Virus record (IMG/VR): IMGVR_UViG_3300012933_000371
Span: 25,989 to 89,988 of that record
Source: a virus
Lineage: Duplodnaviria; Caudoviricetes
Reading direction: 5' to 3' (one strand)
DNA: 64,000 bases
This document shows, piece by piece, positions 7,401-63,388 of this stretch (its first letter is position 1; each line of letters opens with the position of its first letter). The notes under the pieces are model-generated. The model made no database searches. It saw nothing but the letters and a program-made list of their open reading frames with translations, and was not told where the DNA came from. A program made the position numbers and the translations under genes.

Positions 7401-10400
7401 ATGTTCCGTTGTAAAGCAAATTAGGTACTGCAGGGTTTGTTCCGCTTGGTCTAAAGTCCCAGATACCTACGTTTGAGTCATTGTCTAGTCTTAACCAAGT
7501 TTCAACAGTATAATCTGACTTTCCTAAACCAAATACAGGCGAAACGTTTGCGCTTCCTGCAGCAGGAGAAATAACATAGCCATTACCATCCATATAAGCA
7601 CTATATGCTGTAGGTGTTACAGTTTTTCCACCAAAAGGTGAGTATGCTTGAACTGACGGAGTTCCAGATACAGTCGCTGCAAAAGTATTAGGGCTATTGT
7701 CAATTAAACGATTACTTTGACACGTTAGTAATTGAGTGTTAGTAATTGCGGTTAATGGTACTGTGCTTGGCGTAAATACTTGAGTTCCTACAGTAGTACT
7801 TGCAGTTGTGTATAGTGCAGTACCTTTTAAGATTCTAAAGTTAGAAATATTACCTGTTATATAGTCGTTGCCACCACCACTACCAACTGATACTGTTGCA
7901 GAAGTACCGTAGTTACCAGTATCTGTACTAACATAGGCCAATGTACCGTTAACGTACATTTTAAATCCGTTTGCTGAAGTGTTTTCTCGCACTACTGCAA
8001 AATGAGTCCAGGTATCAGTTGCAATTAAGTATGATGCTCCAGTTACGTGAGTAGTAGATGCAGGGCCAGAATAGTAACGCAAACAACCTACAGTTGATCC
8101 ACTATAACCACCTGTACCTAATAAAAATTGACTGCCTTGAACAGTAATTTGTTTATTATTAGTTCCCTTAGGTAACTTTACCCACCCTTCAAATGTAAAG
8201 GCACCAGTACCAAACGCATATTGAGTGCTAGATGGGAAAGTTAATTGAGACCCACCGTCAAAGTATGTACTCCAGCCGTTTTGGCTAAATGGACTAAACG
8301 TACCTTGTGTGGGATTACCTGATCTAGTTACAATATTGTTAGCGCTGCTTTGGTCAACAAAGTTATTATTTGTTGAGTTACCATTATACTGTAGGGTTAG
8401 TAATTTTGTATTTGTTACAGCAGTTAGGGGTGTTTGCGGAGGCAAGAAGTTTGAGGTATATACTGCTGAGCCTATAACAAGCCTAAAATCAGATATATAT
8501 GCATTAAATGAACCTGCAGATCCGTATCCTGCACGTGCCGCTATTGATGGCTGTTTAATATAATCGCCATAATAGTCAATTGCTTGAGTACCAATATTAT
8601 AAGTAGTAGCATCTGCGATACCATTAACATATAAGGTAAAAGTACCATTGTTACGAACCAGTGCCACATGGTTCCACATATTTAATTTAACTTGTTGTGA
8701 AGTACCTGTAAACGATACACCACCATTACCATTTTGATCCCAAGTATAGTTTAAGTATCCACTAGACTGTAATGTAAAAATACTTTGTCCACCAATGCCA
8801 TACCATTGGTTAAACAAAGCACCTTCATTACCACCAGGGTAGTTTATGGGATATATCCAACATTCGTATGTGAAGTTTTTGTCAGTTAATGCAAATAGGG
8901 CTGAAGTACTACGAGTTTCATCAGCAATCTTTAAAAAGTCGCCAGAGCCATCAAAATAAGCGGAACCAATACTAGTTAGTGTATTTGTACTGGTAGTCTG
9001 TGTGAAGGGGCTAAATGCAGTTGGTTGTGCATCACCATAACTTGTGACAACAAACGCATTAGTTGAGTTATCTTTTAGGGTTGAGTTTTGGCAAGTTAAT
9101 AAGCTTGTACCTGACACTGCGGTTAATGGAGCTGTACTAGGTGTAAAAGTTGTTGTATATAGTGCCGTACCTGTAACTACTCTAAAATTACTAATATAAC
9201 CTCGATAATAAATTGCAGAGGAGCCATTTCTACCAAGATACAGTGTGCTACCAGTATAATTAGTTGTGTCACTTGTAAAGGTACTACCTGCTTGAGTACC
9301 GTTTAAGAATAATTTAGTATTCCCGCCCTGTCTTGTTATTGCAATATGCGTCCATTTATTGCCGTAATTAGCAGATGTAAACCCGGATACGGTTATTTTA
9401 TTTGTTCCGCTTGCGTCAGTATAAAAAGATAAATTGTTATCTGAATAACGATATAGCAAAAATCCAGAAATATTAGCAAACAAATCATAGCGTGTGCCAT
9501 CTACGCCGGTAAAATAGAACCAACCTTCAACAGTAAAATCACCTGTACCAATTGTTATACCAGTAGAGGGAACTGTTAAGTAATCACCAGTACCATCAAA
9601 GTACGTACTATACTGCGTGTTATAAGCAATAGATGTTGGTCTTGCAAAAGGAACAGACGACGTTACTGGTACTGACGATACTGGCGTTATTTTGCAATTA
9701 TATGGGCTAGTATCTATTAAACGACTAGAGTTTGCGCATAGTAATGTAGTGCCGGCGATAGCTGTTAAAGCCTGCGTAGAAGGGGTAAAATTAGCCGTGT
9801 ATACTGCAGTACCCTTAACGATTCTAAAATTACTTAAAGAGAATTTATTTTTATATCCTGTTGAGTAATACCCACCTAATGCAAGATATGTTGCAGTATA
9901 GTTTGTTGTGTCAGCACCAGTTTGGCAAGCTACTCCATCAATATATAAAGTGAATACGCTATTATTTTTAACTAATGCAAAATGTGTCCAAGCAAACATC
10001 TTTGGCACAGGTGTATTTGGTTGTGCAAAGTTTGAACCACCACTATATGTATGCCATAAGCTATTATAAGTTGCAAACGCAACTCCTGATCCGTTACTTG
10101 GTAAATATCCATTATCACTTAGATGGAATATACCTCCGTTCCAGTCTATTCCACCTTCTAGTCTTACCCAACCTTCAATAGTCCAATTACCTGCTCCAAG
10201 TGGAGTAACTGGAATAGTTGCATAGCTGCTATTATCAAAATAATTGCTGTAATAACCTTCTTGATACGGATTAAAGCTATTTGGCTTTGTATCACCAATT
10301 ACGGTCACTTGATTATTAACTGAACTAGCATCACTTACAAAGGATGGAGTTGGAGTTGTGCCGTTTAATAGTAAAGTAGTATCTTTCCAGTAAGTATCGC

Positions 10401-23230: not shown

Positions 23231-24756
23231 TATACTAATACCTCCATATCAACATAACCAGTATCCCAGTTTGATGAGATAGATACTATCTGAGCGGCTG
23301 CCCCATTCGATAAGCCAAAACGTCTATGTGTTAATGTTATCATATCGCCTAATTTTAGTCCCATGAATTTACTGGTACAAGTAAATTTATATATGTACCT
23401 AGGTACTTTTCGTAAGTTAACTAATCTGGTAGCTTCTGCGGTAATGTCGCCAGTTGCATCGCTAAGCATAAGAGTGTCTTTTTGATCTGGAGTTGCAGTA
23501 TGCTTGTACAAAGTCTGTGTGGCTGTGTCGGTAACAGTTTTTGATAGCCATTCTAATGCAAATAGCTCTTTGTGAGCGCTAGGAATTCCTGTTAGTAGTT
23601 TATCTTCTACAGTATAATTTTTACAGTAGCCCAACTTTACGCTACTTAGTACTTCAGGCTTAGATACAATACTTAAGCTATACTGAACGATGTATTCGTC
23701 AGTTATATTTTGTGAACCAGTAGTAGGGATATCAATCTTTAATAAACGTAACAAACCTTCTTTGGTAGTAGTTAGTTGTGCGCCAATACCTGAAGCTAGC
23801 TGTGCACATACATCTAGTACGTTTTGCTTAGTATTAACATAAATACCTACTTTTTGCTGATTAGCAGTATCAAAATCTGAGAAGTTTGTTAAGTCGAAAT
23901 CGTCGTCAGTAAATGTACCAGTTAACGAAGGCTTGCCAAAATCTTTTACAATACGTTTAATTATGGTAGCTACAGTATTATTATAAGTTGTATCTTTATC
24001 ACCTTGTACACTACAAGTAATAGTTCCTGCAGGATTCTTTATTAAAGTAAAAGTTCCTGCGGCGAGATCTACTGTGTAACCTGTTACAGGTTGTAGCGGT
24101 ACACCGTTATCTCGTACTTCAATAATTGCTTCTATTGGGCCATTATTAACCATGTACTTAGGACCAAATAAAGTAGCTGAGTCCATTAACAGTGGCTGAA
24201 TGTTAAATACTTCACCAAACACCAAAGGCAATATTTGTTCTTTGTTTGGATTATCCGATCCTGCATTGCCATATGGTCCTAGTACTGTATCAGTAATAGG
24301 TATATTCAATCTTTGTAATTTATCACGTAACTGTAAGTTAATAGAGTCCTTATCACTAGAAGCTACTTCGGCTACGATGCCGCTGAATATCTTTGTAAAA
24401 TTATCGCGCGTGTATTTTACGTCACCTATCCATATATCAATAGTACGACCTACCCATACATACTGTAAAGCTTCGTCATATTCACCATTGTAGTTGTTTA
24501 ACGAAATATCTCCATAATTAAGAGCAGCAGTACCTTCTAGGTTTAAACTTTCTGTGAAACTTACTGCTGTTTTTAATATTGGTAAATACGCAGTATTTGC
24601 AGGAGTATCTGTAGGCCCTGTTACGTAAGGGCGATTACTAAAGTATAAAGTCGTATCTGTGCCGTTAATGTTAGCTACAACCTCTACTAACATACAGCGG
24701 ATCGCTGACGGATTTTCTAACCAATCTTGGAATTCTTGTGCGCTTAGTGCCATCAT
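23230..24756 (-). CDS. Baseplate hub (Tal-like) protein
   Basis: Directly after the tape measure; PLVFGEVFNIQP and LKLGDMITLTHRRFGL motifs. Confidence 0.65.
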   Translation of the reverse strand: MMALSAQEFQDWLENPSAIRCMLVEVVANINGTDTTLYFSNRPYVTGPTDTPANTAYLPILKTAVSFTESLNLEGTAALNYGDISLNNYNGEYDEALQYVWVGRTIDIWIGDVKYTRDNFTKIFSGIVAEVASSDKDSINLQLRDKLQRLNIPITDTVLGPYGNAGSDNPNKEQILPLVFGEVFNIQPLLMDSATLFGPKYMVNNGPIEAIIEVRDNGVPLQPVTGYTVDLAAGTFTLIKNPAGTITCSVQGDKDTTYNNTVATIIKRIVKDFGKPSLTGTFTDDDFDLTNFSDFDTANQQKVGIYVNTKQNVLDVCAQLASGIGAQLTTTKEGLLRLLKIDIPTTGSQNITDEYIVQYSLSIVSKPEVLSSVKLGYCKNYTVEDKLLTGIPSAHKELFALEWLSKTVTDTATQTLYKHTATPDQKDTLMLSDATGDITAEATRLVNLRKVPRYIYKFTCTSKFMGLKLGDMITLTHRRFGLSNGAAAQIVSISSNWDTGYVDMEVLV

Positions 24757-27800: not shown

Positions 27801-30800
27801 TAAATAATTTCTTTGTAGAACCAGCAATTTTCGCTGTAGATTGAAGTTCGAAATTAGTGCGTTCACGAGCATTTTTATCTGCTTGCTCAGTATACTTTTC
27901 GGAACCTATCTCTAGTCCCTTCATATTATCTTTATGAGCAGACGTCATAGCTTTAGAGCTAATGGCGTATTCTGTTATAGAACCTACTGCATTGCCTATG
28001 CTTGTACCTAGTGTGCCAAAAACTGCGGTTAAGCTTTCTGTCATTGTTTTAACACCAGCAAGAGCATTTTTCTGCTCATTGATAGCGGCATTAAGTTCTT
28101 GCTGTTTAGTTTTTTGTGCTTCTAGGCCCGCAACTGCTGACTCAGAGTCTGCCTTTATTTTCTCAGCACCAGATGTATCACCTTTTGCTGCGTATTCGGC
28201 TGCTTTAGTTGTGGCTAAAGATCTAACTTCTGCAATTGCTTGTGCTGTGCGTAATTCTTCTTTGGTGTTTTCTGTTTTTAACAGAGAGTTATTATATTCT
28301 CGTTCGGAGATACCGCCCAAAGTAAGATAAGTATCTAATAAGCGCTTTTCAGTTGTAGACTTAGCAGTAAATGCATCTAAATCTTGTTTAGCTTGTAAAC
28401 GTCCTAATTTTAAAACATTAGAAGTTTTTAATGTATCTAAATCAGTTTCAGCTTTCTTCTTAGCTTCAACTGCAGCTAAGTACTGTTGGTTACTAGATAG
28501 TTGAGCTTCTGAGTTATTCTTTTGTGACGCAGTAATTAGTTCATTAGCTATTAGTACTTTAGAATTAATAGCTGCGTATTCAGCTAAATATGTATTTAGT
28601 TGGTTTGCAATCTCTAATTCATTTTTTCTCTTATACAACATTTCGTCATACATTGAGGATAAAGTAATAGTACTGTTAATAGAATCTAATTCTATATTAT
28701 TTCTAGCAGTTGCTTGATCTAAGGAACGCTTAGTAGTTTGTGCAGATTCATTAATAGTAGCTGCCATTGTTTGTAAACTATTAGCAGTTTGAGCACCTAC
28801 TAGTTTAGCTAGTTGGCCTTCCATTGTAAACATCTGAGCTATTACTGGACCTAGATTCTTTAAGGCTTCTCTTGTAATCTCGGACATTGAACCAGATTTG
28901 GAAGCTTCTTCGGACATAGCACCTTTAATGCCTTTTGTACCTGCTCCTGTTAATCTGCGCTCTTCGTTAATTACATCTAATCTACGTTGTGCATCAGCAG
29001 CTTGTGTTAAATACTTATCTATAACTACTGGGCCTGTAGCAGTTTTAAGTGATTCGGCTGCGTCTCTTAAATCGTCTTTTGCTGTTTTTTCTGCTAAAGC
29101 ACGAGTATTTTCTTGTATAGCAGTAATGTGCGAATACGTTGCTTTAACGTTTTCCATCTGTATACTAATTTCTCTGGCACGTAACTTGCCTTCTTCTGCA
29201 GCAGTTTCTCCGCCTATGCCTTTTAATACCGATAGGTATCCTTTTGCAGCAGCTATTCCACCTTCTTCAAAAGCACCCTTTAAACTAACTGTTAGTTTAT
29301 CGATACCGGCTTTGAATACTACTTTATCCAGTTCTGCAAAATTAGCTGTGGCTTTTTCTGCTGACTCTGTAAGATTTTTTCTAGTAGCTTCTAGTGCAAC
29401 TAAGGTTCCTTCTACTAAAGCAGCTTCTTCGGTTAGTACCTCTTCTGCTAAGTTTCTGTACCCTTCTAGGGCAGATCCTGCTACTTTTGTTTTATAAGTA
29501 CCTTTTGCCTTTAAGGCCTCTATCGATTTTTCTGCTTCTAATCTTGCTTTTTCTGTTCCGCCAAGCTGCTCATTAATTGACTGTAGTTCTTTTTTAGCCG
29601 CTTGTAGTTGTACTACAGTATCTTTTGGTAATAAAGATAATACTTCATTGTTCTTAATGATTTCATTTAAAGTATTAAGCGCTTCAATAGGTCCCGCCTT
29701 TAACGCATCGCTAATAGCTACGCTATTAGATACCAAGCTAGCACCTGTTTTGCCGAAAACATCTTTTGGGGATAGTTCTGCTATTGCAGTTTGTACTGTC
29801 TTTGAAGTTTCTGCAAAAGACGTTTTTAATCCTGTTAATACGCTGGCAGTATTGTTGGCTTCTCTAGAAATATCTGATAAGGCGCTAGCTATTAGCTTAC
29901 CTTTTTCTGCTATCTCTGCGTCTGTTAAATTACGTAGAGATTTTTCAATAGACTTGAAATTTTCAATATCTACTGAATCGCCAATAATATTTTCTAGCTT
30001 TTTCTGCGCTGCTTTCTTTGCAGGGCCTTCTTGCATAAGATTAATACTGCTAGTAACGGCTTTGGCTAAGTTTGTAGATAGTACATCTGCTGTGCCTTTA
30101 CCAAAAACATCAAAGAATACGTCTTTTAGTTTATCCCATCCACTAGTAGCCTTAGTTAGTTCTACGAAACTAGTAACAGTGCTAGTAGCTGCGGTAGTTA
30201 ACTCATTAAAGGCATTAGCTCTGGCTTGTATAGAGTCTATGCTTAGTACATCAAATGGCGACTTAGATGCGATAACATCCATAGTTCTTGAAACATTGTC
30301 AAAAGACGCTGAAAGTGTATCTATATTTTTATTGTACTTTTCTACTTGCTTAGCGTTATTAGATAGTAACGAATCAAGTATTGCAAAAGCAGCAGTTGCA
30401 ATCGCTACGTACATTCCGTATACATTTAGTAAATTACTAAGATATGTGGTGGCAATACTTGCCGCACCTTGTACGTATGTAAGAGTTTTTGCTAGTGGGC
30501 CAACGTTCATTTTTGATACGTCTGTACCTAGTTGTCCAAAAGCAATTTTAGGGCCATATATGGCAGCATTATCTGCGGCCATAGATAGTACGTGAGCTTT
30601 GGATTCTGCACGTTCCATAGCTTGTTGCTTTTTGCGCATCAAGGTTTGATGTGCGTACCATTTTTCATCGCTGGCTTCGTGTATTTCTTGAGCGGCTGCC
30701 CCTGCTTCTTTTGCTTCTGCACGAATAGCACTTATTCTTAGTTCACGCTTTGAAAGCTTATCATGTTGTAGCTTTTCGTCAGCAGTAGCTGAGCCTGCAT

Positions 30801-43587: not shown

Positions 43588-43911
43588 ATGACTGCAAAGA
43601 CTGTAAACTATACGGCAGACCAAGCCGCAAAAATGGTAGCTGACTATTTGGCTGGCGTGACTGTTGAAGCTATCGCGGCTGAGATGGGTAAATCTGCTCG
43701 CTCTGTTGTTGCTAAACTTTCACGCGAGAAGGTTTATAAGGCTAAGACTTATCAGACTAAGACAGGTGAAGCCGTGATTAAAAAAGATGCACACGCTGAT
43801 TTTATCGGCGAAGCATTGGGCTTAACTGAGGCTGATACCGATTCGCTGACTAAGGCCAACAAGGTAGCATTGGCAAAGATTGCCGATTTTATCAAGGCTG
43901 AAAAGAGCTAA
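43588..43911 (+). CDS. T5 A2-like DNA-binding protein, paralogue 1
   Basis: MTAKTVNYT...Y..G...IA..MGKSARSVVAKLSRE.VY pattern resembles my recollection of T5 A2; HTH-like. Confidence 0.6.
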   Translation: MTAKTVNYTADQAAKMVADYLAGVTVEAIAAEMGKSARSVVAKLSREKVYKAKTYQTKTGEAVIKKDAHADFIGEALGLTEADTDSLTKANKVALAKIADFIKAEKS

Positions 43912-43940
43912 GATTTTGGCAAGGGTGCAAGCCCTTGCTA

Positions 43941-43977
43941 ATTGATTTTGCCTATTGGCTTGATAGGCAAAATCAAT
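43941..43977. promoter_or_regulatory. OxyR-like four-tetramer box within a perfect 18-bp inverted repeat (43938-43980)
   Basis: ATTG-N7-CTAT-N7-ATAG-N7-CAAT versus OxyR consensus ATAG-N7-CTAT-N7-ATAG-N7-CTAT. Confidence 0.6.
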
Positions 43978-44011
43978 TAGACAAACCCAAGATTTGCGAT
44001 ATAATAAACAC

Positions 44012-44188
44012 ATGAAAACAAAAAACATCCCCCAAATTGTGCTTGATGCGGTAGCTAAAGATTTTAAATCTTTTCACACCGTGACTGCAACTGTTGCAAA
44101 TACGTTTATGGCTTCTGCTGGCAATCTCAGCATTTACTACATTGTAAATGCTGACTGTTCAGAAATTATTGATATTCAGGTAGATTGA
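44012..44188 (+). CDS. 58-aa hypothetical protein, probably leaderless
   Basis: TATAAT(44000-44005)-AAACAC-ATG. Confidence 0.65.
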   Translation: MKTKNIPQIVLDAVAKDFKSFHTVTATVANTFMASAGNLSIYYIVNADCSEIIDIQVD

Positions 44189-44189
44189 T

Positions 44190-44273
44190 ATGACAGACGG
44201 AATGCTCTTCATGCTTTTTATGCTTGGCGGCTTTGCCATTAGCTTTGTACTTCTTTTGTGGATTACAAAATGA
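44190..44273 (+). CDS. 27-aa membrane miniprotein
   Basis: MTDGMLFMLFMLGGFAISFVLLLWITK; ATGA-coupled to the next gene. Confidence 0.55.
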   Translation: MTDGMLFMLFMLGGFAISFVLLLWITK

Positions 44274-44629
44274 TTAAATCAGATACAATGCGACTCTTTG
44301 AATTAATCTTGCAAGATGAATTCAAATTAAAATCTAGAATCAATTTATCCAAAACGAAGGTTTTGCGATTTGATGGAGATTCGTGCATGGGTATGTATGA
44401 GGGTTACAAAATCTCTGCTAAGAAATTTAATCACAGAATCAGAATTGCAACTTCTGAGGTTAAAAACGACTATGACTTATTCACTACCCTAGCGCATGAA
44501 TATGTCCACGCATGGCAAATGGAGCAAAACCGCGACCTAGACCACGACACCGATTCAGGTTTTACCGCTTGGCGTAATTACTTTAAAACGTGTTATAATG
44601 TTGATATTGTATCTTTTGGAGCAAATTAA
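44270..44629 (+). CDS. HEXXH zinc metallopeptidase-like protein
   Basis: TTLAHEYVHAWQ...HD motif. Confidence 0.65.
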   Translation: MIKSDTMRLFELILQDEFKLKSRINLSKTKVLRFDGDSCMGMYEGYKISAKKFNHRIRIATSEVKNDYDLFTTLAHEYVHAWQMEQNRDLDHDTDSGFTAWRNYFKTCYNVDIVSFGAN

Positions 44630-44953
44630 ATGGCAACTATCGTAATGGATTCTCAAAAGGTTATCAACGCGGCTCAAATCGTAATTGATAAAATTATGGC
44701 TCACCGCGATGCGCGGGATGAAAAAGCAATCGCAAATGAAATGGCGACCCGTTCGCTGGGCTGGCGCGGGTTTTATTGGCCTACGCGAGAGCAAGCCATT
44801 GACGCGCTTGATCGTTCGGATTCTTGGGGCTGGCGTTCAATATACGCATGGGGCGATTATGCTCACGCTAAAAAGTTGCTTTTGTTGGCACAACACGGCG
44901 ACCCCGTTACACTAAACGAAGAAGATATTATTGTCTTGGCTAAGGGGCTTTAA
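44630..44953 (+). CDS. Hypothetical protein
   Basis: 107-aa ORF with GGAG SD, in a tight operon. Confidence 0.7.
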   Translation: MATIVMDSQKVINAAQIVIDKIMAHRDARDEKAIANEMATRSLGWRGFYWPTREQAIDALDRSDSWGWRSIYAWGDYAHAKKLLLLAQHGDPVTLNEEDIIVLAKGL

Positions 44954-44954
44954 A

Positions 44955-45092
44955 ATGTATATCGAAATGACTACTTTTGCTGTTCCTGCCTTTTTGGTAG
45001 CTGGGCTTAAATTCTTGGCTTTGGTTTCGCTTGGCTGGCTGGCTGTTGGTTTTGTGGGCGTGACTATTTATCAACTTTGGGGCACAAAATGA
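44955..45092 (+). CDS. 45-aa membrane miniprotein
   Basis: MYIEMTTFAVPAFLVAGLKFLALVSLGWLAVGFVGVTIYQLWGTK; ATGA-coupled. Confidence 0.6.
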   Translation: MYIEMTTFAVPAFLVAGLKFLALVSLGWLAVGFVGVTIYQLWGTK

Positions 45093-45382
45093 AAACTGTT
45101 TTCACTAAAAAATTCTGGCAAATTAAACGCGCAAATTGGCAAATTGTAAAATTCAAATACTTTTATTCTTGGCAAAACACGCTAAAATTAATTGTTGCAC
45201 TTGGCGTTATTTTGCCCGTTTGCATTATATTTGTAATGATACCTAGCTGGTTTTTTAATTTGCTAGAAGAATTTGTGCGGGAAAATATGCCATTTAAAGT
45301 TGACGAAAACCCAGAATGGATTAAAATGCAAATGAACGGACAAACCCGTGATTTTATGATGCAATTTAAAACATGGGAATAA
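45089..45382 (+). CDS. Single-TM membrane protein
   Basis: MKTVF start overlaps the upstream stop; central hydrophobic segment. Confidence 0.6.
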   Translation: MKTVFTKKFWQIKRANWQIVKFKYFYSWQNTLKLIVALGVILPVCIIFVMIPSWFFNLLEEFVRENMPFKVDENPEWIKMQMNGQTRDFMMQFKTWE

Positions 45383-45392
45383 GGGGCACAAA

Positions 45393-45554
45393 ATGAAAAT
45401 CAAAAAAGTTATTCGCACAATTACCGATGATTTTGGCAAAGCTGGGCGCGTTGAATATCATATTCTTCGTGATGACGGCTCACTGGTAGACGTTGAGCTA
45501 GATTATGGCACCGCATGGGTTCGAATGCTGGTTTACGAAAACTTGGATAAATGA
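45393..45554 (+). CDS. 53-aa hypothetical protein
   Basis: AAGGGG SD; MKIKKVIRTITDDFGKAGRVEYHILRDDG... Confidence 0.6.
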   Translation: MKIKKVIRTITDDFGKAGRVEYHILRDDGSLVDVELDYGTAWVRMLVYENLDK

Positions 45555-45690
45555 ATACTTTTGTTTCCAACTCAAAATGAGAACTTTTGTTTCTCATTTT
45601 GAGGCGCCAAAATTATACCACATAATTTTGGGGCTTGTCAAGGCTTTTCTGATTAATTTTCGCTATCGGGGCGATAGATTTTTACAATCG
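45554..45690 (-). repeat. Pre-early cassette 1: palindrome + GGCGCC + leftward TTGACA-18-TATAAT + OxyR-like box
   Basis: 13-bp inverted repeat 45571-45603; -10 at 45612-45617; -35 at 45636-45641; ATTA-N7-CTAT-N7-ATAG-N7-CAAT at 45652-45688. Confidence 0.85.
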
Positions 45691-45731
45691 TGATTTTGGC
45701 TTTTGGCCGTTTTTTGCGCTATAATAAACAC

Positions 45732-45857
45732 ATGAAAACAATTTACACACCAAACCAAAAAGCGCGATTCAATCGTTTTTGTGATCGTCACGGCCTTGCA
45801 TTTGCTACAATTACAGAGTATAATGCGGCTATCGAACAATTTTTCTCAGGGGAATAA
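45732..45857 (+). CDS. 41-aa hypothetical protein, probably leaderless
   Basis: TATAAT(45720-45725)-AAACAC-ATG; MKTIYTPNQKARFNRFCDRHGL... Confidence 0.65.
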   Translation: MKTIYTPNQKARFNRFCDRHGLAFATITEYNAAIEQFFSGE

Positions 45858-45859
45858 AA

Positions 45860-46336
45860 ATGGCTAAAATTAACCGCGTTGCAATTTACGACATGGACGG
45901 CACGATTGTAGATTCAAGCCACCGCTATCGCACAATTACTGATGAAAATGGCGAGCGTATAGATTTGGATTTTTGGCGAGAAAATGAATATCGCGCAATG
46001 GATGACGGATTGTTGCCCATGTTTTCACAATATGAAAAAGATTTGGCTGACGAAAATTGTTATACAATTATTGCAACTGCGCGGGTAATGAACGAACCAG
46101 ATTGGCAATTCGTAAACGAAATTTTAGGCGCTCCAGATTATTTTATTTCTCGCCCTGCGGGTTCTGATATTTCAGGCAAAACGCTAAAAATTAATGGCCT
46201 TGCAAAATTCTTTAATCTGGTAACTTTCAAAGATGCTGATTTTGTTTTTTACGAAGATAATATTAGCTATCTAAAAGCCGTTTGCGATAGGTTTAATATT
46301 CGCGGGGTTTATATCCCAAGCGTTCAAGGCCATTAA
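45860..46336 (+). CDS. HAD-superfamily phosphatase (PNK 3'-phosphatase / nucleotidase-like)
   Basis: YDMDGT, IATAR, K and YEDN: HAD motifs I-IV. Confidence 0.8.
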   Translation: MAKINRVAIYDMDGTIVDSSHRYRTITDENGERIDLDFWRENEYRAMDDGLLPMFSQYEKDLADENCYTIIATARVMNEPDWQFVNEILGAPDYFISRPAGSDISGKTLKINGLAKFFNLVTFKDADFVFYEDNISYLKAVCDRFNIRGVYIPSVQGH

Positions 46337-46470
46337 TACTTTGGTTTGCAATTCAAAATGAGAAACAAAAGTTCTCATTTTGAGGCGCCAAAATTATAAC
46401 ATATAATTTTGGGGCTTGTCAAGCATTTTGCGATTAATTTTTTCTATCGGGGCGATAGATTTTATTTATT
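46335..46470 (-). repeat. Pre-early cassette 2
   Basis: 12-bp inverted repeat 46353-46383; -10 at 46393-46398; -35 at 46417-46422; ATTA-N7-CTAT-N7-ATAG-N7-TTAT at 46433-46469. Confidence 0.85.
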
Positions 46471-46568
46471 GCATTTTTCGATTTTCAGGCGTTTTTGTTG
46501 TATAATCTTTTCATTGGTTCAATAGAATCAATCAGCGAATTCCGACTGTATCGGTAATTGGAAACAAA

Positions 46569-47267
46569 ATGGCTAAAAAACAATTCTTTGCGATTCTCGA
46601 CACTGAAACAACTATTGCCGATACTGTGGCCGATTTTGCCATTGTGATTTGTGATCGTGATGGCAAAATTTATAATCAATGCGCGGTATTGGTAAAAGAT
46701 CAATTTGACGCGCACGAATTATTTTATGATAAAAATGCCAAGGGTCTTTGGTCTTTGCAATATGCAAAGGACAAACGCGCAAAATACAACGATATGCTTA
46801 ATTCTGGTTCTAGAATGTTAGCTTCTGTTTCTGCAATCAATAACTGGATTAATCAAGCCATTGGCAAGTATAACCCAACTTTGACCGCTTACAATTTGGC
46901 TTTTGATAAATCAAAATGTGCAAACACAGGTATTACATTGGACGGCTTTTCTGATAACTTTTGTTTGTGGCAAGCGGCTGTTGGCAATATCTGCAACACT
47001 AAAAAATTCAAGCAATTTTGCCTAGAAAATCATGCGTTCAATGCCCCTACTGAATTTGGCAATATGACTTTTAAAACAAACGCCGAGATTGTTTGCGGGT
47101 TTATTAATGGCGGGTTTGTTGAAGAACCGCATACCGCGCTCGAAGATGCGCGCGATTTTGAATTGCCGATTTTGCGCGAGATTATCAAAAAACGCGATTG
47201 GAAACAAAAGGTAACACCTTATAACTGGCGCGAATTTCAAACCCGTGACCATTTCCAAGCCAAGTAA
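46569..47267 (+). CDS. DEDDh (DnaQ-like) 3'-5' exonuclease
   Basis: LDTETT (ExoI), AYNLAFD (ExoII), HTALED (ExoIII). Confidence 0.85.
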   Translation: MAKKQFFAILDTETTIADTVADFAIVICDRDGKIYNQCAVLVKDQFDAHELFYDKNAKGLWSLQYAKDKRAKYNDMLNSGSRMLASVSAINNWINQAIGKYNPTLTAYNLAFDKSKCANTGITLDGFSDNFCLWQAAVGNICNTKKFKQFCLENHAFNAPTEFGNMTFKTNAEIVCGFINGGFVEEPHTALEDARDFELPILREIIKKRDWKQKVTPYNWREFQTRDHFQAK

Positions 47268-47429
47268 TCTAGGAATGTAGGCCGAAAGGCCTACATTTAA
47301 TAAAATGAGATATTTGTGGGTTTTTGCTCTTTTGTTGCATTTATACAACGACAAAAAATTAAATGATGAATTTATTTTTGAATCGTGTTATAATACAATA
47401 ACGGTAGACGAAATTTATAGGGGTTAAAA

Positions 47430-47687
47430 ATGGAAACAATCGGCTGGCTGGGTTCACTACTTTTTGCGTTTTGCGGGTTGCCCCAAGCCGTGGAAAGTTA
47501 CCGCGCAAAAAATTCTGACGGGCTAACGTGGGGATTTTTGATGATGTGGTTTTGGGGTGAGGTGTTTACTTTTGTTTACGTTTTGCCTACCATGTTGTGG
47601 CCTTTGGTTTTCAACTATACCGCGAATTTTATATTTTTAGCAGTTATTTTGTATTACAAAATAAAACCCACAAGAAACAAAAGTTAA
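47430..47687 (+). CDS. PQ-loop / SemiSWEET-like membrane protein
   Basis: GWLGS...LPQA...S.GL motif, three TM helices, P...N in TM3. Confidence 0.8.
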   Translation: METIGWLGSLLFAFCGLPQAVESYRAKNSDGLTWGFLMMWFWGEVFTFVYVLPTMLWPLVFNYTANFIFLAVILYYKIKPTRNKS

Positions 47688-47695
47688 CACTTTTT

Positions 47696-47717
47696 AAAAA
47701 GCCCCGAAGGGCTTTTT
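47696..47717. terminator. Bidirectional intrinsic terminator
   Basis: AAAAAGCCCCGAAGGGCTTTTT; the minus strand forms GCCC-UUCG-GGGC-UUUUU. Confidence 0.85.
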
Positions 47718-47730
47718 ATTTTGCCAAAAA

Positions 47731-47826
47731 TAAAATGAATACTTTTGTTTGCAGAAATTCTTGGAAACAAAAGTATTACATTTTGGGGCGCCAAAATTAT
47801 AGCATATACTTTTGGCCCGTGTCAAG
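47731..47826 (-). repeat. Pre-early cassette 3
   Basis: 13-bp inverted repeat 47738-47777; GGCGCC; -10 at 47796-47801; -35 at 47820-47825. Confidence 0.85.
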
Positions 47827-47892
47827 CAAAATAAATTAACTTATTTTTTGTAGGGGTATTATTTTTGGGGATTTTTATTGTATAATCTTCAC

Positions 47893-48270
47893 ATGGACAA
47901 AACGATTTTAACCCGCTTACTAAAACGCGAATCGGCTATGATTTGGGATTCGCTTTGCGAGATATATCCCGCACTTGTTTTTCACGACTGCCCGAAAATT
48001 AGCCTTAATGGTAGATTATGGCGCGTGGCGGGTTTAAACGATCAAGCCGAAAATTCTATTGAATTGGGCTATAAATTCTTTGCACATAGCAAAAAATATG
48101 CCAACTATATGATTGATGTTATTTTGCCACATGAGATTATACATCAAGCCGATTATAATTTATTTGGCGAAAGCGAAAAAATTTGTGGGCATGGCGTAAA
48201 ATGGCGTGAAATTATGGTAAACTATGGTTTAGACGCTGACCCGTTTCATACAATGGATATTAAACGATGA
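47893..48270 (+). CDS. SprT-like zinc metalloprotease, probably leaderless
   Basis: LNGRL...AG, ILPHEIIH, HG..WREIM; TATAAT(47881-47886)-CTTCAC-ATG. Confidence 0.8.
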   Translation: MDKTILTRLLKRESAMIWDSLCEIYPALVFHDCPKISLNGRLWRVAGLNDQAENSIELGYKFFAHSKKYANYMIDVILPHEIIHQADYNLFGESEKICGHGVKWREIMVNYGLDADPFHTMDIKR

Positions 48271-48380
48271 TAGAAAAAATTTTATGGGGTATTTTGTGGG
48301 GGGTTGTGATAATGGCCCCGCATATATGGTATAATTGGCACATAGCAAAACAAAACAAACGAGCAAAACAAAATGACTAA
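48267..48380 (+). CDS. 37-aa membrane miniprotein
   Basis: MIEKILWGILWGVVIMAPHIWYNWHIAKQNKRAKQND; overlaps both neighbours. Confidence 0.5.
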   Translation: MIEKILWGILWGVVIMAPHIWYNWHIAKQNKRAKQND

Positions 48381-48585
48381 ATTTTTTGAAACCTTTGGTA
48401 CTATTGCTGGAATTATTGGTGCTTTTCTTGTAGCACTTACGTTTGCAGGAATTGGATACTATTTTTTCTTTTGTAGTTCTTTTTGCCTAATGATATCGGC
48501 GATTCGTCAGAAACAAAAGAATTACATTGCGCTACAAACTACATTCTTTTTGGCTAACGTGATCGGATTGTTAAATTATGCGTAA
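48373..48585 (+). CDS. Small multi-TM membrane protein
   Basis: Three hydrophobic segments in 70 aa. Confidence 0.65.
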   Translation: MTKFFETFGTIAGIIGAFLVALTFAGIGYYFFFCSSFCLMISAIRQKQKNYIALQTTFFLANVIGLLNYA

Positions 48586-48651
48586 ATAATTTAAAAAATC
48601 TTGAAAATCTGAAAAAACTGTGATATAATGAATTTTTAAAGGGGATTTGAA

Positions 48652-48978
48652 ATGACTGCAAAAACTGTAAACTACACCGCCGAGCAAACTGCTAAGATTG
48701 TGGCCGATTATTTGGCTGGCGTGACTGTCGAAGCCTTGGCCGCTGAATTGGGAAAATCAGCCCGTTCGGTTGTTGCGAAATTGTCACGCGAAGGCGTATA
48801 TAAGGCAAAAGTATACAAAACCAAAACTGGCGCGGCTGTGGTCAAAAAAGATGCTCACGCCGATGCAATCGGCGCTATTTTGCAATTGAGCGAAAATGAA
48901 ATCGAAAGTTTGACAAAAGCAAATAAAACTGCGCTGGAAAAGATTTTTTCAGCACTTGCAAATTCTAAGCCAGTTTAA
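48652..48978 (+). CDS. T5 A2-like protein, paralogue 2
   Basis: Highly similar to 43588-43911; own promoter TTGAAA-17-TATAAT. Confidence 0.6.
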   Translation: MTAKTVNYTAEQTAKIVADYLAGVTVEALAAELGKSARSVVAKLSREGVYKAKVYKTKTGAAVVKKDAHADAIGAILQLSENEIESLTKANKTALEKIFSALANSKPV

Positions 48979-48992
48979 GCCGAAAGGCTTAC

Positions 48993-49022
48993 AAAGCCCC
49001 TCAATTTCGAGGGGCTTTTTTT
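48993..49022 (+). terminator. Intrinsic terminator
   Basis: AAGCCCCTC-AATTTC-GAGGGGCTT followed by a T run. Confidence 0.85.
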
Positions 49023-49040
49023 CGTGCAAACGCAAATGCA

Positions 49041-49059
49041 AATGAGAATCATTCGCATT
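49041..49059. promoter_or_regulatory. Fur box-like 9-1-9 palindrome
   Basis: AATGAGAAT-C-ATTCGCATT, one mismatch from perfect dyad; extra AAATGC hexamer upstream. Confidence 0.65.
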
Positions 49060-49060
49060 T

Positions 49061-49103
49061 GGCGGCGCCAAAATTATACCACATAATTTTGGGCTGTGTC
49101 AAG
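49061..49103 (-). promoter_or_regulatory. Pre-early cassette 4: leftward TTGACA-18-TATAAT + GGCGCC
   Basis: -10 at 49073-49078; -35 at 49097-49102. Confidence 0.85.
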
Positions 49104-49131
49104 GATTTTTTAATACCCGAGTAATTTACTC

Positions 49132-49190
49132 TGGCATGGTTCTTGCGCCGCGGGCAGGCATGGTTCTTGCTATTAGCAAAATACGTGCCA
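49132..49190. promoter_or_regulatory. Three sigma54 -24/-12 boxes
   Basis: + strand TGGCATG-GTTC-TTGC (49132-49146) and AGGCATG-GTTC-TTGCT (49156-49171); - strand TGGCACG-TATT-TTGCT (49175-49190). All are GG-N10-GC. Confidence 0.75.
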
Positions 49191-49315
49191 CCACTCAATA
49201 ATGCATAATTATTAATTATCGTGGCATAATTATAAATTACCAGAAATTTTCACGTTATGAAAACCTATGCCACCATGTAAAATTGAGTACCTTTGACTTA
49301 CAACACCAAGCGCGC

Positions 49316-49447
49316 TGCGCCAGTGGCAAAGCAACAAGTGCAAATTCAACGACGTGCCGTGCGCCAGTGGCTGGTCAAGTGCAAATTCTAGTATGTATAG
49401 GCCGCAGAGCCTGGCAAGTGCAAAAATTTACTGTTGAGTGCAAATTC
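49316..49447 (+). repeat. Four AGTGCAAA direct repeats plus two GCGCCAGTGG
   Basis: Cores at 49337, 49378, 49417 and 49437. Confidence 0.75.
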
Positions 49448-49491
49448 AAAAAGTTTTATAATTGTTTTACAAAAGCAGCAAAGGAACTGAA

Positions 49492-49626
49492 ATGACAGAA
49501 CATGAATTTTATCAACAAATTCAGTTGGAGTGGTTCTGTGAATTTGTGAGTGCAGAACTATCCAAAAATCCTCAAGATGTCAACACTCACCGCGAATTTT
49601 TTGAATTTGACGACGTTCCCTTCTAA
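49492..49626 (+). CDS. 44-aa acidic miniprotein ending FDDVPF (SSB C-terminal tip-like)
   Basis: Promoter TTGAGT-17-TATAAT (49434-49462), SD AAGGA, MTEHEFYQQIQLEWFCEFVSAELSKNPQDVNTHREFFEFDDVPF. Confidence 0.7.
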   Translation: MTEHEFYQQIQLEWFCEFVSAELSKNPQDVNTHREFFEFDDVPF

Positions 49627-49671: not shown

Positions 49672-49989
49672 ATGATGACTAAAGAAACCAAAACAGTAAA
49701 CTACACTCCAGAACAAACTAAGGCAATTGTGGAGGCATACCAGGCAGGTGCTAGCGTGGAAACTATTGCCAAGGAAATGCAAAAATCCACTCGAAGCATT
49801 GTTGCTAAGCTGGCTCGTGAAGGTGTGTACCAAGCCAAATCTAAAGCCAAGGGCACTCAAGCTCCACGCAAATCCGAGTTGATTACTCAAATTGCTCACA
49901 GCATCGGCACTAACGAAGAGTTGATCGAGTCGCTTGAGAAAGCTACCCGCGAAGCTTTGGAGCTGATTGCAAAGGCTGTTAAACAGTAA
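49672..49989 (+). CDS. T5 A2-like protein, paralogue 3
   Basis: VNYTPEQT...Y.AG..VE.IA...KS.RSIVAKL.REGVY; promoter TTGACG-17-TACAAT (49607-49635). Confidence 0.6.
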   Translation: MMTKETKTVNYTPEQTKAIVEAYQAGASVETIAKEMQKSTRSIVAKLAREGVYQAKSKAKGTQAPRKSELITQIAHSIGTNEELIESLEKATREALELIAKAVKQ

Positions 49990-50980: not shown

Positions 50981-51301
50981 TTAATTCAATTTAGGGTCAG
51001 ATTTGGACTCCAAATTCTGTTCGATCATTAACAAGACCTGTTTATTGACCTTTTCTAGGCTTTCGAGTAGCTCTAGGTTGCATTGTAGCAATTCTGCAAT
51101 CCGTTCAATGTGTTCTGACTTTTTTGTTGGCACCTCACCGCGTTTGTTGAGGTACTGCTTTTTTTGGTAGACACCCAGTGAGCTGAGCTTGGCAATAATG
51201 CTGCGTTCTGGCACCTGGAACTGTTGAGCTAGTGCTTGGACGGTCACACCGGCTTGATAGTCTGCGATCAACTGTTTGGTAGATTCATTTGTGTATTTCA
51301 T
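50981..51301 (-). CDS. T5 A2-like protein, paralogue 4
   Basis: MKYTNEST...ADYQAGVTV.ALA.....ERSIIAKLSSLGVY...RGE...KK.EH.E.IA..L......LESLEK. Confidence 0.6.
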   Translation of the reverse strand: MKYTNESTKQLIADYQAGVTVQALAQQFQVPERSIIAKLSSLGVYQKKQYLNKRGEVPTKKSEHIERIAELLQCNLELLESLEKVNKQVLLMIEQNLESKSDPKLN

Positions 51302-51303
51302 GA

Positions 51304-52278
51304 TTAAATCTCCCAAGGTAAGTCTGAACCATCGCTTTTTGATACATACTTATTTTGAGCAGTTTGGGGTCTAAACAAATCTGTAACAATTAGAGGTGCT
51401 GGCATAGAATCCCAACTCTCAGGATCTAAAACCATATACGGAGTACGATTACTTGGGTGTGCACACCAAATTTGGGAATACATTACTTGAGCTAAGTGTG
51501 GTACTGCTTGTAAACATCCGCCTTTTGTAGACCATAATTTAAAACTACTTTGTGGATTACGGCTTTCACCCCTTTTAGGGCCACTTTGATAAATTAACCC
51601 TAATTCACGAGCTTTTAAAATATCTTCTCGTGTATAGTTGCCTTCATGAAGCATTGCTTCACATAAACTATCGTTGACTACCCACTTTAGGGTCTTTCGA
51701 TCCCAACGTGAATATGGAATTTTGTGGTGCAGTTTATAAGCATAAGGAATTAGTGGAACTAAAGCACAAAACTGAGCCCCCTCGCCTTTGTACTGGCTAG
51801 AGAGATATGCACTGCGTGAGTCCAGCATTAAAAACATGTATAGTCCACGTTCCCATTCGCTGTCAAAATCAAAAGCGTGCTTTAAAATCTTGCTGCCATC
51901 AATCTGACCCTCAGCTGTTGAAACTTCCGATAATCGAAATGGTCTATTGGCAATATGTGCCATGATTTGGGGCAGTACTGAAATTAAGAGTGTACTAAGC
52001 TTATATCGTGGAATCCAAATATCTATGGCAGCTTTTTGCCCAGCTTTCTTTCGGACTTCTGCTTTGCTGTACTGTTGAAGCTCTACTTGGTCGCCAAAGC
52101 TGACTTCGCTAGAGGCTTCATGAGTAGCTGCATACCTTTGTTCTAGTGCAGCTACTTCGTTTTCGTATTTGTCTCGTACATGCTGTTCCATACCCTCAAC
52201 TGCAGCGTCTGCAGCGTCTGTATAGATTTCATATAGTTTGTCAAACGGGATTGTTTTAAGTTGTCGGTTAATTATCAT
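51304..52278 (-). CDS. 324-aa protein of unknown function
   Basis: Long ORF, no motif recognised, co-directional with paralogue 4. Confidence 0.8.
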   Translation of the reverse strand: MIINRQLKTIPFDKLYEIYTDAADAAVEGMEQHVRDKYENEVAALEQRYAATHEASSEVSFGDQVELQQYSKAEVRKKAGQKAAIDIWIPRYKLSTLLISVLPQIMAHIANRPFRLSEVSTAEGQIDGSKILKHAFDFDSEWERGLYMFLMLDSRSAYLSSQYKGEGAQFCALVPLIPYAYKLHHKIPYSRWDRKTLKWVVNDSLCEAMLHEGNYTREDILKARELGLIYQSGPKRGESRNPQSSFKLWSTKGGCLQAVPHLAQVMYSQIWCAHPSNRTPYMVLDPESWDSMPAPLIVTDLFRPQTAQNKYVSKSDGSDLPWEI

Positions 52279-58122: not shown

Positions 58123-58371
58123 TTAATTTCCTCTACATTCGTAGAAGCCTGGGTGTGTGCATTTACCTACTTCACACTCACAGTATGGAGAACGGCAAGG
58201 CTTTAATGTTCCTTGCCCCGCATTAAAAGCAGCTCTAAGCCACTCGACTACAATAGGATCTCTACCCTCAATTGCATCAAGCTGCTCAAAGAAACGCTCA
58301 GCACGGATATTTTTAGATTCTAGTTCATAGAACCAACTATCAAAATCTTTGTAATAAGGAGCGCTTACCAT
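58123..58371 (-). CDS. Hypothetical protein with Cys-rich tail
   Basis: EWLRAAFNAG motif, then CRSPYCECEVGKC. Confidence 0.6.
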   Translation of the reverse strand: MVSAPYYKDFDSWFYELESKNIRAERFFEQLDAIEGRDPIVVEWLRAAFNAGQGTLKPCRSPYCECEVGKCTHPGFYECRGN

Positions 58372-59270
58372 TTTGCTTCATTTGGAATAAGTTTACGGAA
58401 TTGTGTCCAGCCACGAAGGTTGCCAGACCATGCTTGTTCGTTTCGGTCAACGTGAGTTGTGCCTTCATCTGCAAAGCTATGTGGGCGCTTCATTGGAGTA
58501 GCTTGATGCTCAACTGGTGAAGCATGAGCAGGCTCTGACTCAATTAACTGCTTGTAAATCTTGTGTGCTTTTTCTAGGCTGTCATCTTGCTTGCGATAGC
58601 TAACTTGCGCACAGCATGAAGCAGACACAACCTTAGCATCTTCTAAAGAGATCTGATCGAACTCACCGTGAAAATACTGTAGTTCACCAGTTGGCACATA
58701 ACGAGCAGTACCTACGTACGGCAAGTGCCACTCGCCTGGCTGCAATTCATTAGGCGTACTAGCGTCATAAGCATTAAACATCTTGCTGGCCAGCTCATGA
58801 ATCTCAGGCTGTGCGTCATGGTGGTCACGCAACCAAAAGAAGTTACGCCACTCTGTTCCCGAAATCACAGTTTTCATAATCATAAACGGTTCTGTGATGC
58901 GGTTAGTGATCTGCTTGTGTGACCCTAAATCGTTGAGTTGTCTGGCTACATCAAGTGCAGCATCACGGGCTTGTGTCCATAAGTAAGCTGCCCACGATTT
59001 ATCTGAGCCTTGCAGTTCCTCCTTGGCTTTCATGCCTGGTTGATTCTTGCCCCAGTATACAGGAGCAGCAGTATTCTCACGAATGTGGTCATGCATTGCA
59101 GCCACAGGAATAGCTCGTGACGATGCTGAATTCTTTGACAACATTCGGTGAGTGTTAAGTTCTGCTAAAATAAAGCGTGGATACTCAATTTCCATAGTAG
59201 TCATGCGAATACCGTCTGATGAGATGCTATCGGCAATAATCTTAGCTGTAATCAAATCTTTGGGGTTCAT
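58365..59270 (-). CDS. thyX: Flavin-dependent thymidylate synthase (ThyX-like)
   Basis: YPRFILAELNTHRMLSKNSASSRAIP, NRITEPF, H.SP.EHQA. Confidence 0.8.
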   Translation of the reverse strand: MNPKDLITAKIIADSISSDGIRMTTMEIEYPRFILAELNTHRMLSKNSASSRAIPVAAMHDHIRENTAAPVYWGKNQPGMKAKEELQGSDKSWAAYLWTQARDAALDVARQLNDLGSHKQITNRITEPFMIMKTVISGTEWRNFFWLRDHHDAQPEIHELASKMFNAYDASTPNELQPGEWHLPYVGTARYVPTGELQYFHGEFDQISLEDAKVVSASCCAQVSYRKQDDSLEKAHKIYKQLIESEPAHASPVEHQATPMKRPHSFADEGTTHVDRNEQAWSGNLRGWTQFRKLIPNEAKW

Positions 59271-63313: not shown

Positions 63314-63388
63314 ACGCTGTTCGTATAATGGATAATACAACTGACTTCTATCCAGTGAATGTGGGTTCGATTCCTGCACGGCGTACCA
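63314..63388 (+). tRNA. trnR: tRNA-Arg (anticodon UCU)
   Basis: Acceptor ACGCTGT/ACGGCGT, D arm GTAT/ATAC, loop CT-TCT-AT, GGTTCGATTCC T arm, encoded CCA. Confidence 0.9.

Follow-up and report, generated by a model that had tools for sequence, protein, structure and literature searches.

Three boxes that match the sigma-54 promoter consensus lie within 60 bp in a gene-free gap of an uncultured T5-like phage, and this gap is, by sequence, the counterpart of the injection-stop region of T5 (Repeat Region 3). The boxes are very likely selected protein-binding sites, and the protein that binds them is probably the host sigma-54 polymerase. In the reading that we prefer, to which we assign a probability of roughly 0.4, the boxes would be docking sites at which the sigma-54 RNA polymerase of the host is kept, silent, in this boundary region, and would not form a genome-wide sponge.

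The boxes and the gap that contains them

The DNA analyzed here (the window, 64,000 nucleotides) is the final 64 kb of a 90-kb linear IMG/VR contig with an estimated completeness of 85%. We assign its source to an uncultured siphovirus that is T5-like but distant; the large terminase shares 47-50% identity with those of the phages X1 and PG07 (Vibrio) and My1 (Pectobacterium). The minus strand carries portal, protease/capsid, and major tail genes up to 43095, the plus strand carries a cluster of small genes at 43588-48978, and this cluster is followed by a gene-free gap of 513 bp (48979-49491), in which no credible ORF was found, the sole overlap being a 49-aa TTG frame on the minus strand. 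Among 50,697 phage records, no nucleotide match to the region was found, and an Rfam search of 43-64 kb returned only a tRNA, with nothing above threshold inside the gap. The features of the gap and its surroundings are as follows.

45612-45641, 46393-46422, 47796-47825, and 49073-49102, minus strand: the four copies of the palindromic promoter in the window
48652-48978, plus strand: helix-turn-helix DNA-binding protein of 108 aa, with phrog_323 and phrog_1725 matches, closing the small-gene cluster
48993-49018, no strand assigned: intrinsic terminator hairpin from the terminator scan, a 10-bp stem then TTTTTTT, closing the upstream gene
49040-49060, plus strand: region marker AAATGAGAATCATTCGCATTT, an imperfect palindrome, Fur-box-like (14/19)
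49068-49102, minus strand: palindromic element CCAAAATTAT-N5-ATAATTTTGG plus GTGTCAAG, a predicted sigma-70 promoter diverging from box 1
49132-49147, plus strand: sigma-54 box 1, TGGCATGGTTCTTGCG, 10/12 match, predicted start at ~49158, rightward
49156-49171, plus strand: sigma-54 box 2, AGGCATGGTTCTTGCT, 10/12 match, predicted start at ~49182, left half of the face-to-face pair
49175-49190, minus strand: sigma-54 box 3, TGGCACGTATTTTGCT, 12/12 match, predicted start at ~49164, leftward, right half of the pair
49195-49300, no strand assigned: A+T-rich tract without sigma-54 sites, with a TGGCATA ... TATGCCA inverted repeat and a TTTTCAC-N3-ATGAAAA palindrome
49318-49450, plus strand: iterons, GCGCCAGTGGC twice, (A/G)AGTGCAAATTC at 49338, 49379, and 49438, and the variant GTGCAAAAAT at 49418
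49434-49462, plus strand: predicted sigma-70 promoter TTGAGT-17-TATAAT, before the next cassette
49492-49626, plus strand: conserved 44-aa ORF with the C-terminal end FEFDDVPF, with homologous ORFs in the related loci L008, L015, L019, and L066
49672-49989, plus strand: helix-turn-helix paralogue with a phrog_1725 match, after the 44-aa ORF in the same first cassette right of the region

The boxes were scored against the consensus TGGCACG-N4-TTGCW, which comprises 12 positions with GG and GC 10 bp apart. The first-pass annotation of this DNA had reported three boxes at 49132-49190 with exact GG-N10-GC spacing, including a perfect minus-strand TGGCACG-N4-TTGCT, and we confirmed the position and spacing of each box as well as the full match of box 3; the window has no other perfect TGGCAC-N5-TTGCW. 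In 300 Markov-1 simulations, boxes with at least 10 of 12 matches numbered 3.1 on average, compared with 10 observed in the window, and a cluster of three boxes within 60 bp arose in none of them (0/300), which excludes chance as its origin. Boxes 2 and 3 abut (TTGC-TATTA-GCAA) and, because the predicted start of each lies inside its partner, they could not be occupied simultaneously. The "partial -24" TGGCATA elements that had also been claimed, at ~49222 and ~49265, are present at 49223-49229 (plus strand) and 49266-49272 (minus strand), but they were rejected as sigma-54 sites, with no GC at the proper distance and with the first not kept in relatives (ATGCAAA in L027). A further sigma-54-like match, TGGCACGTAACTTGCC (11/12) at 29175-29190 on the plus strand, is situated antisense within a 2428-aa ORF and, being unclustered, is probably a chance occurrence.

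The other elements of the gap are of several kinds. The terminator hairpin is flanked by an A-run and, at its opposite end, by a T-run, and may therefore act bidirectionally. The palindromic element, laid out as GCGCCAAAATTATA-CCA-TATAATTTTGG ... GTGTCAAG, reads on the minus strand, from 49102 to 49073, as a perfect extended sigma-70 promoter (TTGACA-18-TGnTATAAT, 12/12), and the other copies read likewise. All four copies of it lie between plus-strand genes and are directed against them; within the contig it is confined to the small-gene cluster, and in related loci and contigs it is mostly kept and is often an assembly break point. The A+T-rich tract is conserved only in part, in L020 and L027. 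The repeat set of the gap is made up of GCGCCAGTGGC and GTGCAAATTC iterons. Relatives, box-less ones among them, have an equivalent of the overlapping sigma-70 promoter ahead of their homologue of the small ORF.

Correspondence with the injection-stop region of T5

This context had escaped the first-pass annotation. In T5, the annotated injection stop signal (9140-10149 of NC_005859) follows a plus-strand cluster of small genes and a terminator, and contains, in this order, DnaA-box inverted repeats, several TTTAAATGAGAATCATT... copies, and nine GTGCAAATCCGACA iterons, before the terminal repeat ends at 10219. Using the 14-mer AAATGAGAATCATT as a marker, with one mismatch at most, we searched six genomes (T5, My1, X1, PG07, the relative G001, and the window) and located it as follows.

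T5: 9586, 9609, and 9655, and again in the right repeat
My1: 12256 and 12286 (end of the left repeat, 12854)
X1: 85708, 86090, and 86127
PG07: 109668-110087
G001: 60754
Window: 49040, one copy in the contig

Outside the equivalent noncoding region of these six genomes, only one copy was found, with 1 mismatch, at 24426 of T5. In T5, My1, and the window, the marker is followed on the same strand and in the same order by GTGC(A/G)AAT(C/T)C iterons (GTGCAAAT(T/C)C), and X1 has related iterons on the opposite strand. The GTGCAAATCC-type iterons of the window, at 49338, 49379, and 49438, have 1 mismatch each and correspond in type to the DRD repeats of T5, GTGCAAATCCGACA. What identifies the gap as the counterpart of Repeat Region 3 is that a small-gene cluster and a terminator are followed in both by the marker and then the iterons, with the strand shared as well. 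The two regions are also alike in being untranslated and in following small, poorly conserved plus-strand genes, and clustered DnaA boxes are found in T5, My1, X1, PG07, and the relatives L014 and L080. They differ in that T5 has no sigma-54 box whereas the window gap has no perfect DnaA box (searched as TTATCCACA or TTWTNCACA) and has an inverted sigma-54 pair where T5 has inverted DnaA-box pairs, and in that the A1 protein of T5 is not detectable in the window's contig or in five relatives. The T5 stop region has been described as highly conserved, with paired DnaA boxes and with element functions that are unknown, and it has been hypothesized that DnaA bound at these boxes arrests the entering DNA (Davison preprint, 10.1101/866236).

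Of 119 sampled IMG/VR loci that carry the 14-mer, most of them as a chance match, 7 had a sigma-54 box within 400 nt, with 8 boxes compared with ~0.7 expected. The place taken by the iterons is filled in relatives by lineage-specific repeats, which in some are perfect DnaA boxes (TTATCCACA, 3-6 copies; L014:3890-3950 and L080:2369-2494), with six perfect boxes clustered just upstream of the flanking-gene copy in L080, and in others are GCTTATATAA, TTTGTGACTGC, or GCGCCAGTGCAAAA repeats. The GCGCCAGTGCAAAA repeats of L068 resemble TGGCGC-N5-TTGCA, a resemblance that does not extend to the repeats of the window. As for the physical ends of these genomes, assemblies collapse the repeats, and G001 is effectively circular with a 19-bp overlap. 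The many related contigs that stop within 3 kb right of the flanking gene were considered as candidates for such ends and rejected; their stops are scattered, several of them inside the multi-copy promoter palindrome, and look like assembly breaks rather than termini.

The marker also resembles the Fur box GATAATGATAATCATTATC, with 14-16 of 19 positions matched (up to 15/19 in X1), and several copies occur in the regions of T5 and X1 (window, 49040-49060; T5, L095, 9540-9720; X1, L176, 1200-1650). T5-like phages use iron-regulated TonB-dependent receptors. A link to Fur is worth testing, and the marker could equally be a phage operator.

Boxes in uncultured relatives and cultured phages

The flanking helix-turn-helix gene at 48652-48978, which has 155 IMG/VR relatives with 69-84% identity, was used to gather 80 related viral loci. 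A homologue of box 1 (TGGCACGATTCTTGCG / ccTGGCACGATTCTTGCGcc) was found in ~25 lineages, always in a single orientation toward same-strand genes 300-350 nt off, and 36-52 nt right of the GTGTCAAG end of the palindrome. In the alignment, it carries 1.0-2.0 bits across exactly 15 positions, with GGC invariant, compared with 0.1-0.8 bits in the flanks, and the DNA downstream is not conserved in the aligned lineages, so that no conserved RNA is evident. Conservation of the GG and GC dinucleotides in homologous genomes had been proposed as a check on the boxes, and the GG-N10-GC geometry is indeed kept in related phages. A counterpart of box 2 is present in L028, L034, L048, L067, L073, L075, L115, and L126, at an offset from box 1 of 26 nt in most relatives and 24 nt in the window, and the three-box layout of the window recurs in L028, L034, L067, L073, L075, L115, and L126. 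In the positional homologues of box 3 (8 lineages), GC is kept in 8/8 and GG in 7/8 while the spacer varies, and in L085, which has six boxes mostly on the opposite strand, TGGCAC and TTGC persist while the four spacer bases change freely. Constant TGGCAC and TTGC with free spacers is the pattern expected for sigma-54. The spacer of box 1, GATTC, is as conserved as the consensus bases, which is not explained by sigma-54 alone.

The boxes are unevenly distributed. Among the near-complete relatives, a single perfect site, homologous in position, was found in each of G001, G002, G003, and G005 and none in G004 (128 kb), and other close relatives are also box-less while retaining everything around the box, which indicates that its role is dispensable. 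The number of boxes per relative is 0, 1, 3, or 6, and their orientation is not fixed. On a tree of the flanking gene, which is limited by paralogy and a short alignment, the box is patchily distributed, being present in 26 of 55 variants, and the well-supported branches require it to have changed at least 7 times. The sigma-54 activator domain (PF00158) was absent in the contig and five near-complete relatives, with matches in all control genomes, and no box-specific conserved upstream repeat that could be an activator site was found in the related loci; the palindromes upstream are the multi-copy sigma-70 element, which is present also where boxes are absent.

The box pattern was also searched for in cultured T5-like phages. 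It had been stated that phages of this type normally use sigma-70 only, and this holds for T5, in whose genome no sigma-54 box was found and all gene classes of which are, according to PMC7472727, transcribed by the sigma-70 polymerase, but it does not extend to the cultured Vibrio and Pectobacterium phages. In X1, PG07, and My1, sigma-54 boxes are interspersed with DnaA and Fur-like boxes in noncoding DNA of the terminal repeat or the pre-early region. In X1 (116 kb), all five boxes with at least 11 of 12 matches lie at 85870-89116, within 5 kb that also contain every perfect DnaA box and every Fur-like box of the genome, five of each, and that adjoin genes annotated as DNA-binding protein (A2-like), A1, dmp, and terminase. 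One of these boxes, TGGCACGATTTTTGCT at 85870, lies amid DnaA boxes in the marker region and points to the 3' ends of minus-strand genes. At 89084-89116, a face-to-face pair, TGGCATACATTTTGC-CTT-GCAAAAAGCGTGCCA, occupies the divergent control gap between operons 145-137 and 146-A2-A1-dmp, adjoining three DnaA-type boxes (one of them a perfect TTATCCACA) and a Fur-like box. PG07 has the same arrangement, the sigma-54, perfect DnaA, and Fur-like boxes of both phages sharing 3-5 kb beside A1, A2, and dmp. In My1, a perfect TGGCACGCTGTTTGCT is found at 7379 and 116549, that is, in both annotated terminal repeats, within a 1-kb noncoding gap with AATGCGAGTAATTCTCATTTGG before it and DnaA boxes after it, and the copy at 7379 points to the 3' ends of minus-strand genes. 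Vibrio and Pectobacterium, the hosts of X1, PG07, and My1, possess rpoN. A full-text search of a literature library found no paper in which T5-like phages are connected with sigma-54 sites. Both rpoN and himAD are required by Aji_GE, a T5-like phage of Salmonella; the authors of that work invoke RpoS and glutamine effects and T5 itself is box-less, and we did not take this need as support.

The face-to-face arrangement recurs as a motif class. Boxes 2 and 3 conform to TGGCAC-N5-TTGC-N5-GCAA-N5-GTGCCA, the left half in the window having two mismatches, and the exact pattern was found in ~150 stretches of IMG/VR (30 with a 3-bp, 76 with a 4-bp, and 44 with a 5-bp center), compared with 1 occurrence of the back-to-back control arrangement and a chance expectation, by our rough estimate, of ~0.1 per pair pattern. 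The 44 pairs of the 5-bp set come from contigs of 28-61% G+C and have spacers that are not complementary; their gene context, as called by a crude and noisy ORF caller, followed no consistent divergent, convergent, or co-directional pattern.

Proposed silent occupancy and the competing explanations

The sigma-54 holoenzyme on -24/-12 DNA forms a stable, silent closed complex until it is remodeled by an AAA+ activator. Because the phage has no activator gene, the sites would most likely act by occupancy, and less likely through RNA production. A study in E. coli (Bonocora et al. 2015, PMC4591121) describes sigma-54 as sitting mostly as inactive holoenzyme, also at sites serving no gene; those consensus sites are, like the phage boxes, conserved without heading a gene, but they are chromosomal and mostly inside genes, whereas the boxes studied here lie between phage genes, in a single syntenic noncoding region. 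Occupancy is favored over ordinary transcription because the activator is missing, because the number and orientation of the boxes vary, because boxes of My1 and X1 face no gene, and because the sites are placed among those of other host factors in a type of region with a known noncoding role in cis. The earlier proposal of a sponge or roadblock in place of productive promoters is supported in part, as regards occupancy, but neither of the two specific roles is supported, and for a roadblock no traffic to block was identified.

On the occupancy reading, the region would be the inner edge of the terminal repeat, a stretch of untranslated repeats that would gather binding sites of DNA-binding proteins which the host contains before infection. 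The host sigma-54 polymerase would dock at the boxes, binding being the step that we infer, and a large host complex would then be held at the boundary alongside DnaA-type, Fur-like, and iteron-binding proteins; owing to the overlap of boxes 2 and 3, this pair would accept only one polymerase, in either direction. What such occupancy would do is speculative: it may retain or stop the DNA as it enters, label the boundary of the repeat for the processing of concatemers, or provide local insulation. A point against this reading is that T5, the one phage with a mapped stop signal, is box-less. It is conceivable, though unlikely, that in many T5-like phages a silent sigma-54 polymerase constitutes the host-side part of the stop or repeat-boundary signal together with DnaA and a Fur-like protein, the face-to-face pair being a dedicated clamp form of it that occurs in many unrelated phages. 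If so, the locked polymerase would be a sequence-specific clamp on the first-entering DNA, or a mark for cutting and duplicating the repeat, and would not serve transcription. The halt of T5 transfer after ~8% of the genome is a decades-old question, and the conserved repeats of the stop region have no assigned function; the boxes offer a conserved, high-information candidate site for one host machine in the counterpart of that region. The similar sites in cultured Vibrio and Pectobacterium phages make it a concrete candidate component that can be tested at the bench, and face-to-face sigma-54 pairs, which recur across uncultured phages, are now placed in a type of region with an experimental history.

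The main alternative, serious though somewhat less likely, is that the boxes are productive, activator-gated sigma-54 promoters, for which a host enhancer-binding protein would supply the ATPase and tie expression to the state of the host, being triggered, for example, by envelope, RNA, or nitrogen stress. Transcription from boxes 1 and 2 would then run rightward into the 44-aa ORF and helix-turn-helix paralogue of the first cassette, and box 3 would fire leftward to give an RNA of ~170 nt ending at the 48993-49018 hairpin. Divergent sigma-70/sigma-54 promoter layouts are ordinary in bacteria. This alternative remains serious because box 1 has a constant orientation toward genes on the same strand and because the X1 pair lies between two diverging operons; the distance of box 1 from the divergent sigma-70 promoter is kept as well, at 36-52 nt in ~25 lineages, and the A+T-rich tract begins at the predicted +1. 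The boxes also share with enhancer-dependent promoters such as glnAp2 and pspA the exact -24/-12 geometry, the consensus, and an adjoining divergent sigma-70 promoter. However, the phage differs from those systems in having no activator gene, no conserved upstream activator site, and no directly served gene, and the boxes differ in their variable orientation and in forming an overlapping face-to-face pair, the two promoters of which would be mutually exclusive. The statement of the first-pass annotation that no ORF depends on the boxes accords with our finding of no clearly dependent gene: the plus-strand genes of the window are at least 300 nt away and have their own sigma-70 promoter, and the next ORF is retained in box-less relatives. 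Moreover, the My1 box, the X1 box at 85870, and box 3 of the window face no gene.

The boxes, single and paired, could also be operators at which some DNA-binding protein of phage or host, and not sigma-54, is bound, such as one of the small helix-turn-helix paralogues, their likeness to the -24/-12 consensus being superficial; we regard this as rather unlikely. From the freshwater family to X1 (TGGCACGATTTTTGCT), the spacer GATT(C/T) is kept, the paired form is a 33-35-bp palindrome with four blocks spaced by roughly a helical turn, an arrangement that suits a dimer or tetramer, and helix-turn-helix genes flank the site. Against this, the flanking helix-turn-helix gene occurs equally in relatives with and without boxes, the spacers vary freely among paralogous boxes, and the same consensus, including the G after TGGCAC, recurs in unrelated viral contigs of widely different G+C content, which is better explained by a universal host factor than by a phage-specific protein.

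That the boxes act as a sponge, with replicated phage DNA titrating a small sigma-54 pool and thereby shutting off sigma-54-dependent host responses, is very unlikely. Sigma-54 is of low abundance in E. coli, closed complexes are long-lived, and with so scarce a factor hundreds of genome copies could matter; the array of six boxes in L085 would also suit such a role. However, most relatives have one site per ~100-kb genome, as in the four near-complete relatives with a single perfect site, many close relatives have none, and the strict syntenic position of the box argues for a role in cis. Finally, it is hardly credible that the palindrome of boxes 2 and 3 works as a hairpin in DNA or RNA, for termination or processing, and resembles sigma-54 sites only incidentally: it can fold, with -9.2 and -9.3 kcal/mol (z -5.0 and -3.9) in L034 and L073, but the window gives -7 kcal/mol with a z of only -1.5, the spacers of the 44 unrelated pairs do not complement each other, no T-run follows the stem, box 1 stands alone in most lineages, and a 4x4 internal loop never pairs, which points to a protein site rather than a hairpin.

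Several minor observations concern the neighboring genes. Matches to the flanking gene in genome contigs comprised only three short MAG contigs (Saccharibacteria, Methylococcaceae, and Crocinitomicaceae), which are probably mis-binned, and no host was called from them. Among the sequencing runs listed for this DNA, none was of RNA, and the DNA runs shared at most 0.11 of the sampled words. Four helix-turn-helix paralogues (~105 aa; phrog_323 "D5-like" and phrog_1725) are located within 8 kb, at 43588-43908, 48652-48978, and 49672-49989 on the plus strand and 50984-51316 on the minus strand, and the noncoding region lies between two of these. Relatives conserve the downstream one much less, and likewise the adjoining iterons. 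Bacterial SSB recruits partner proteins through its acidic DDDIPF tail, which the FEFDDVPF end of the 44-aa protein resembles; the homologues in relatives end in DVPF, and the protein may be an SSB-tail mimic. The small-gene cluster also includes a polynucleotide-kinase-like gene (phrog_415; 45860-46336, plus strand), and the window further encodes a thymidylate synthase (58365-59270, minus strand) and, close to the contig end, tRNA-Arg(TCT) (63314-63388, plus strand).
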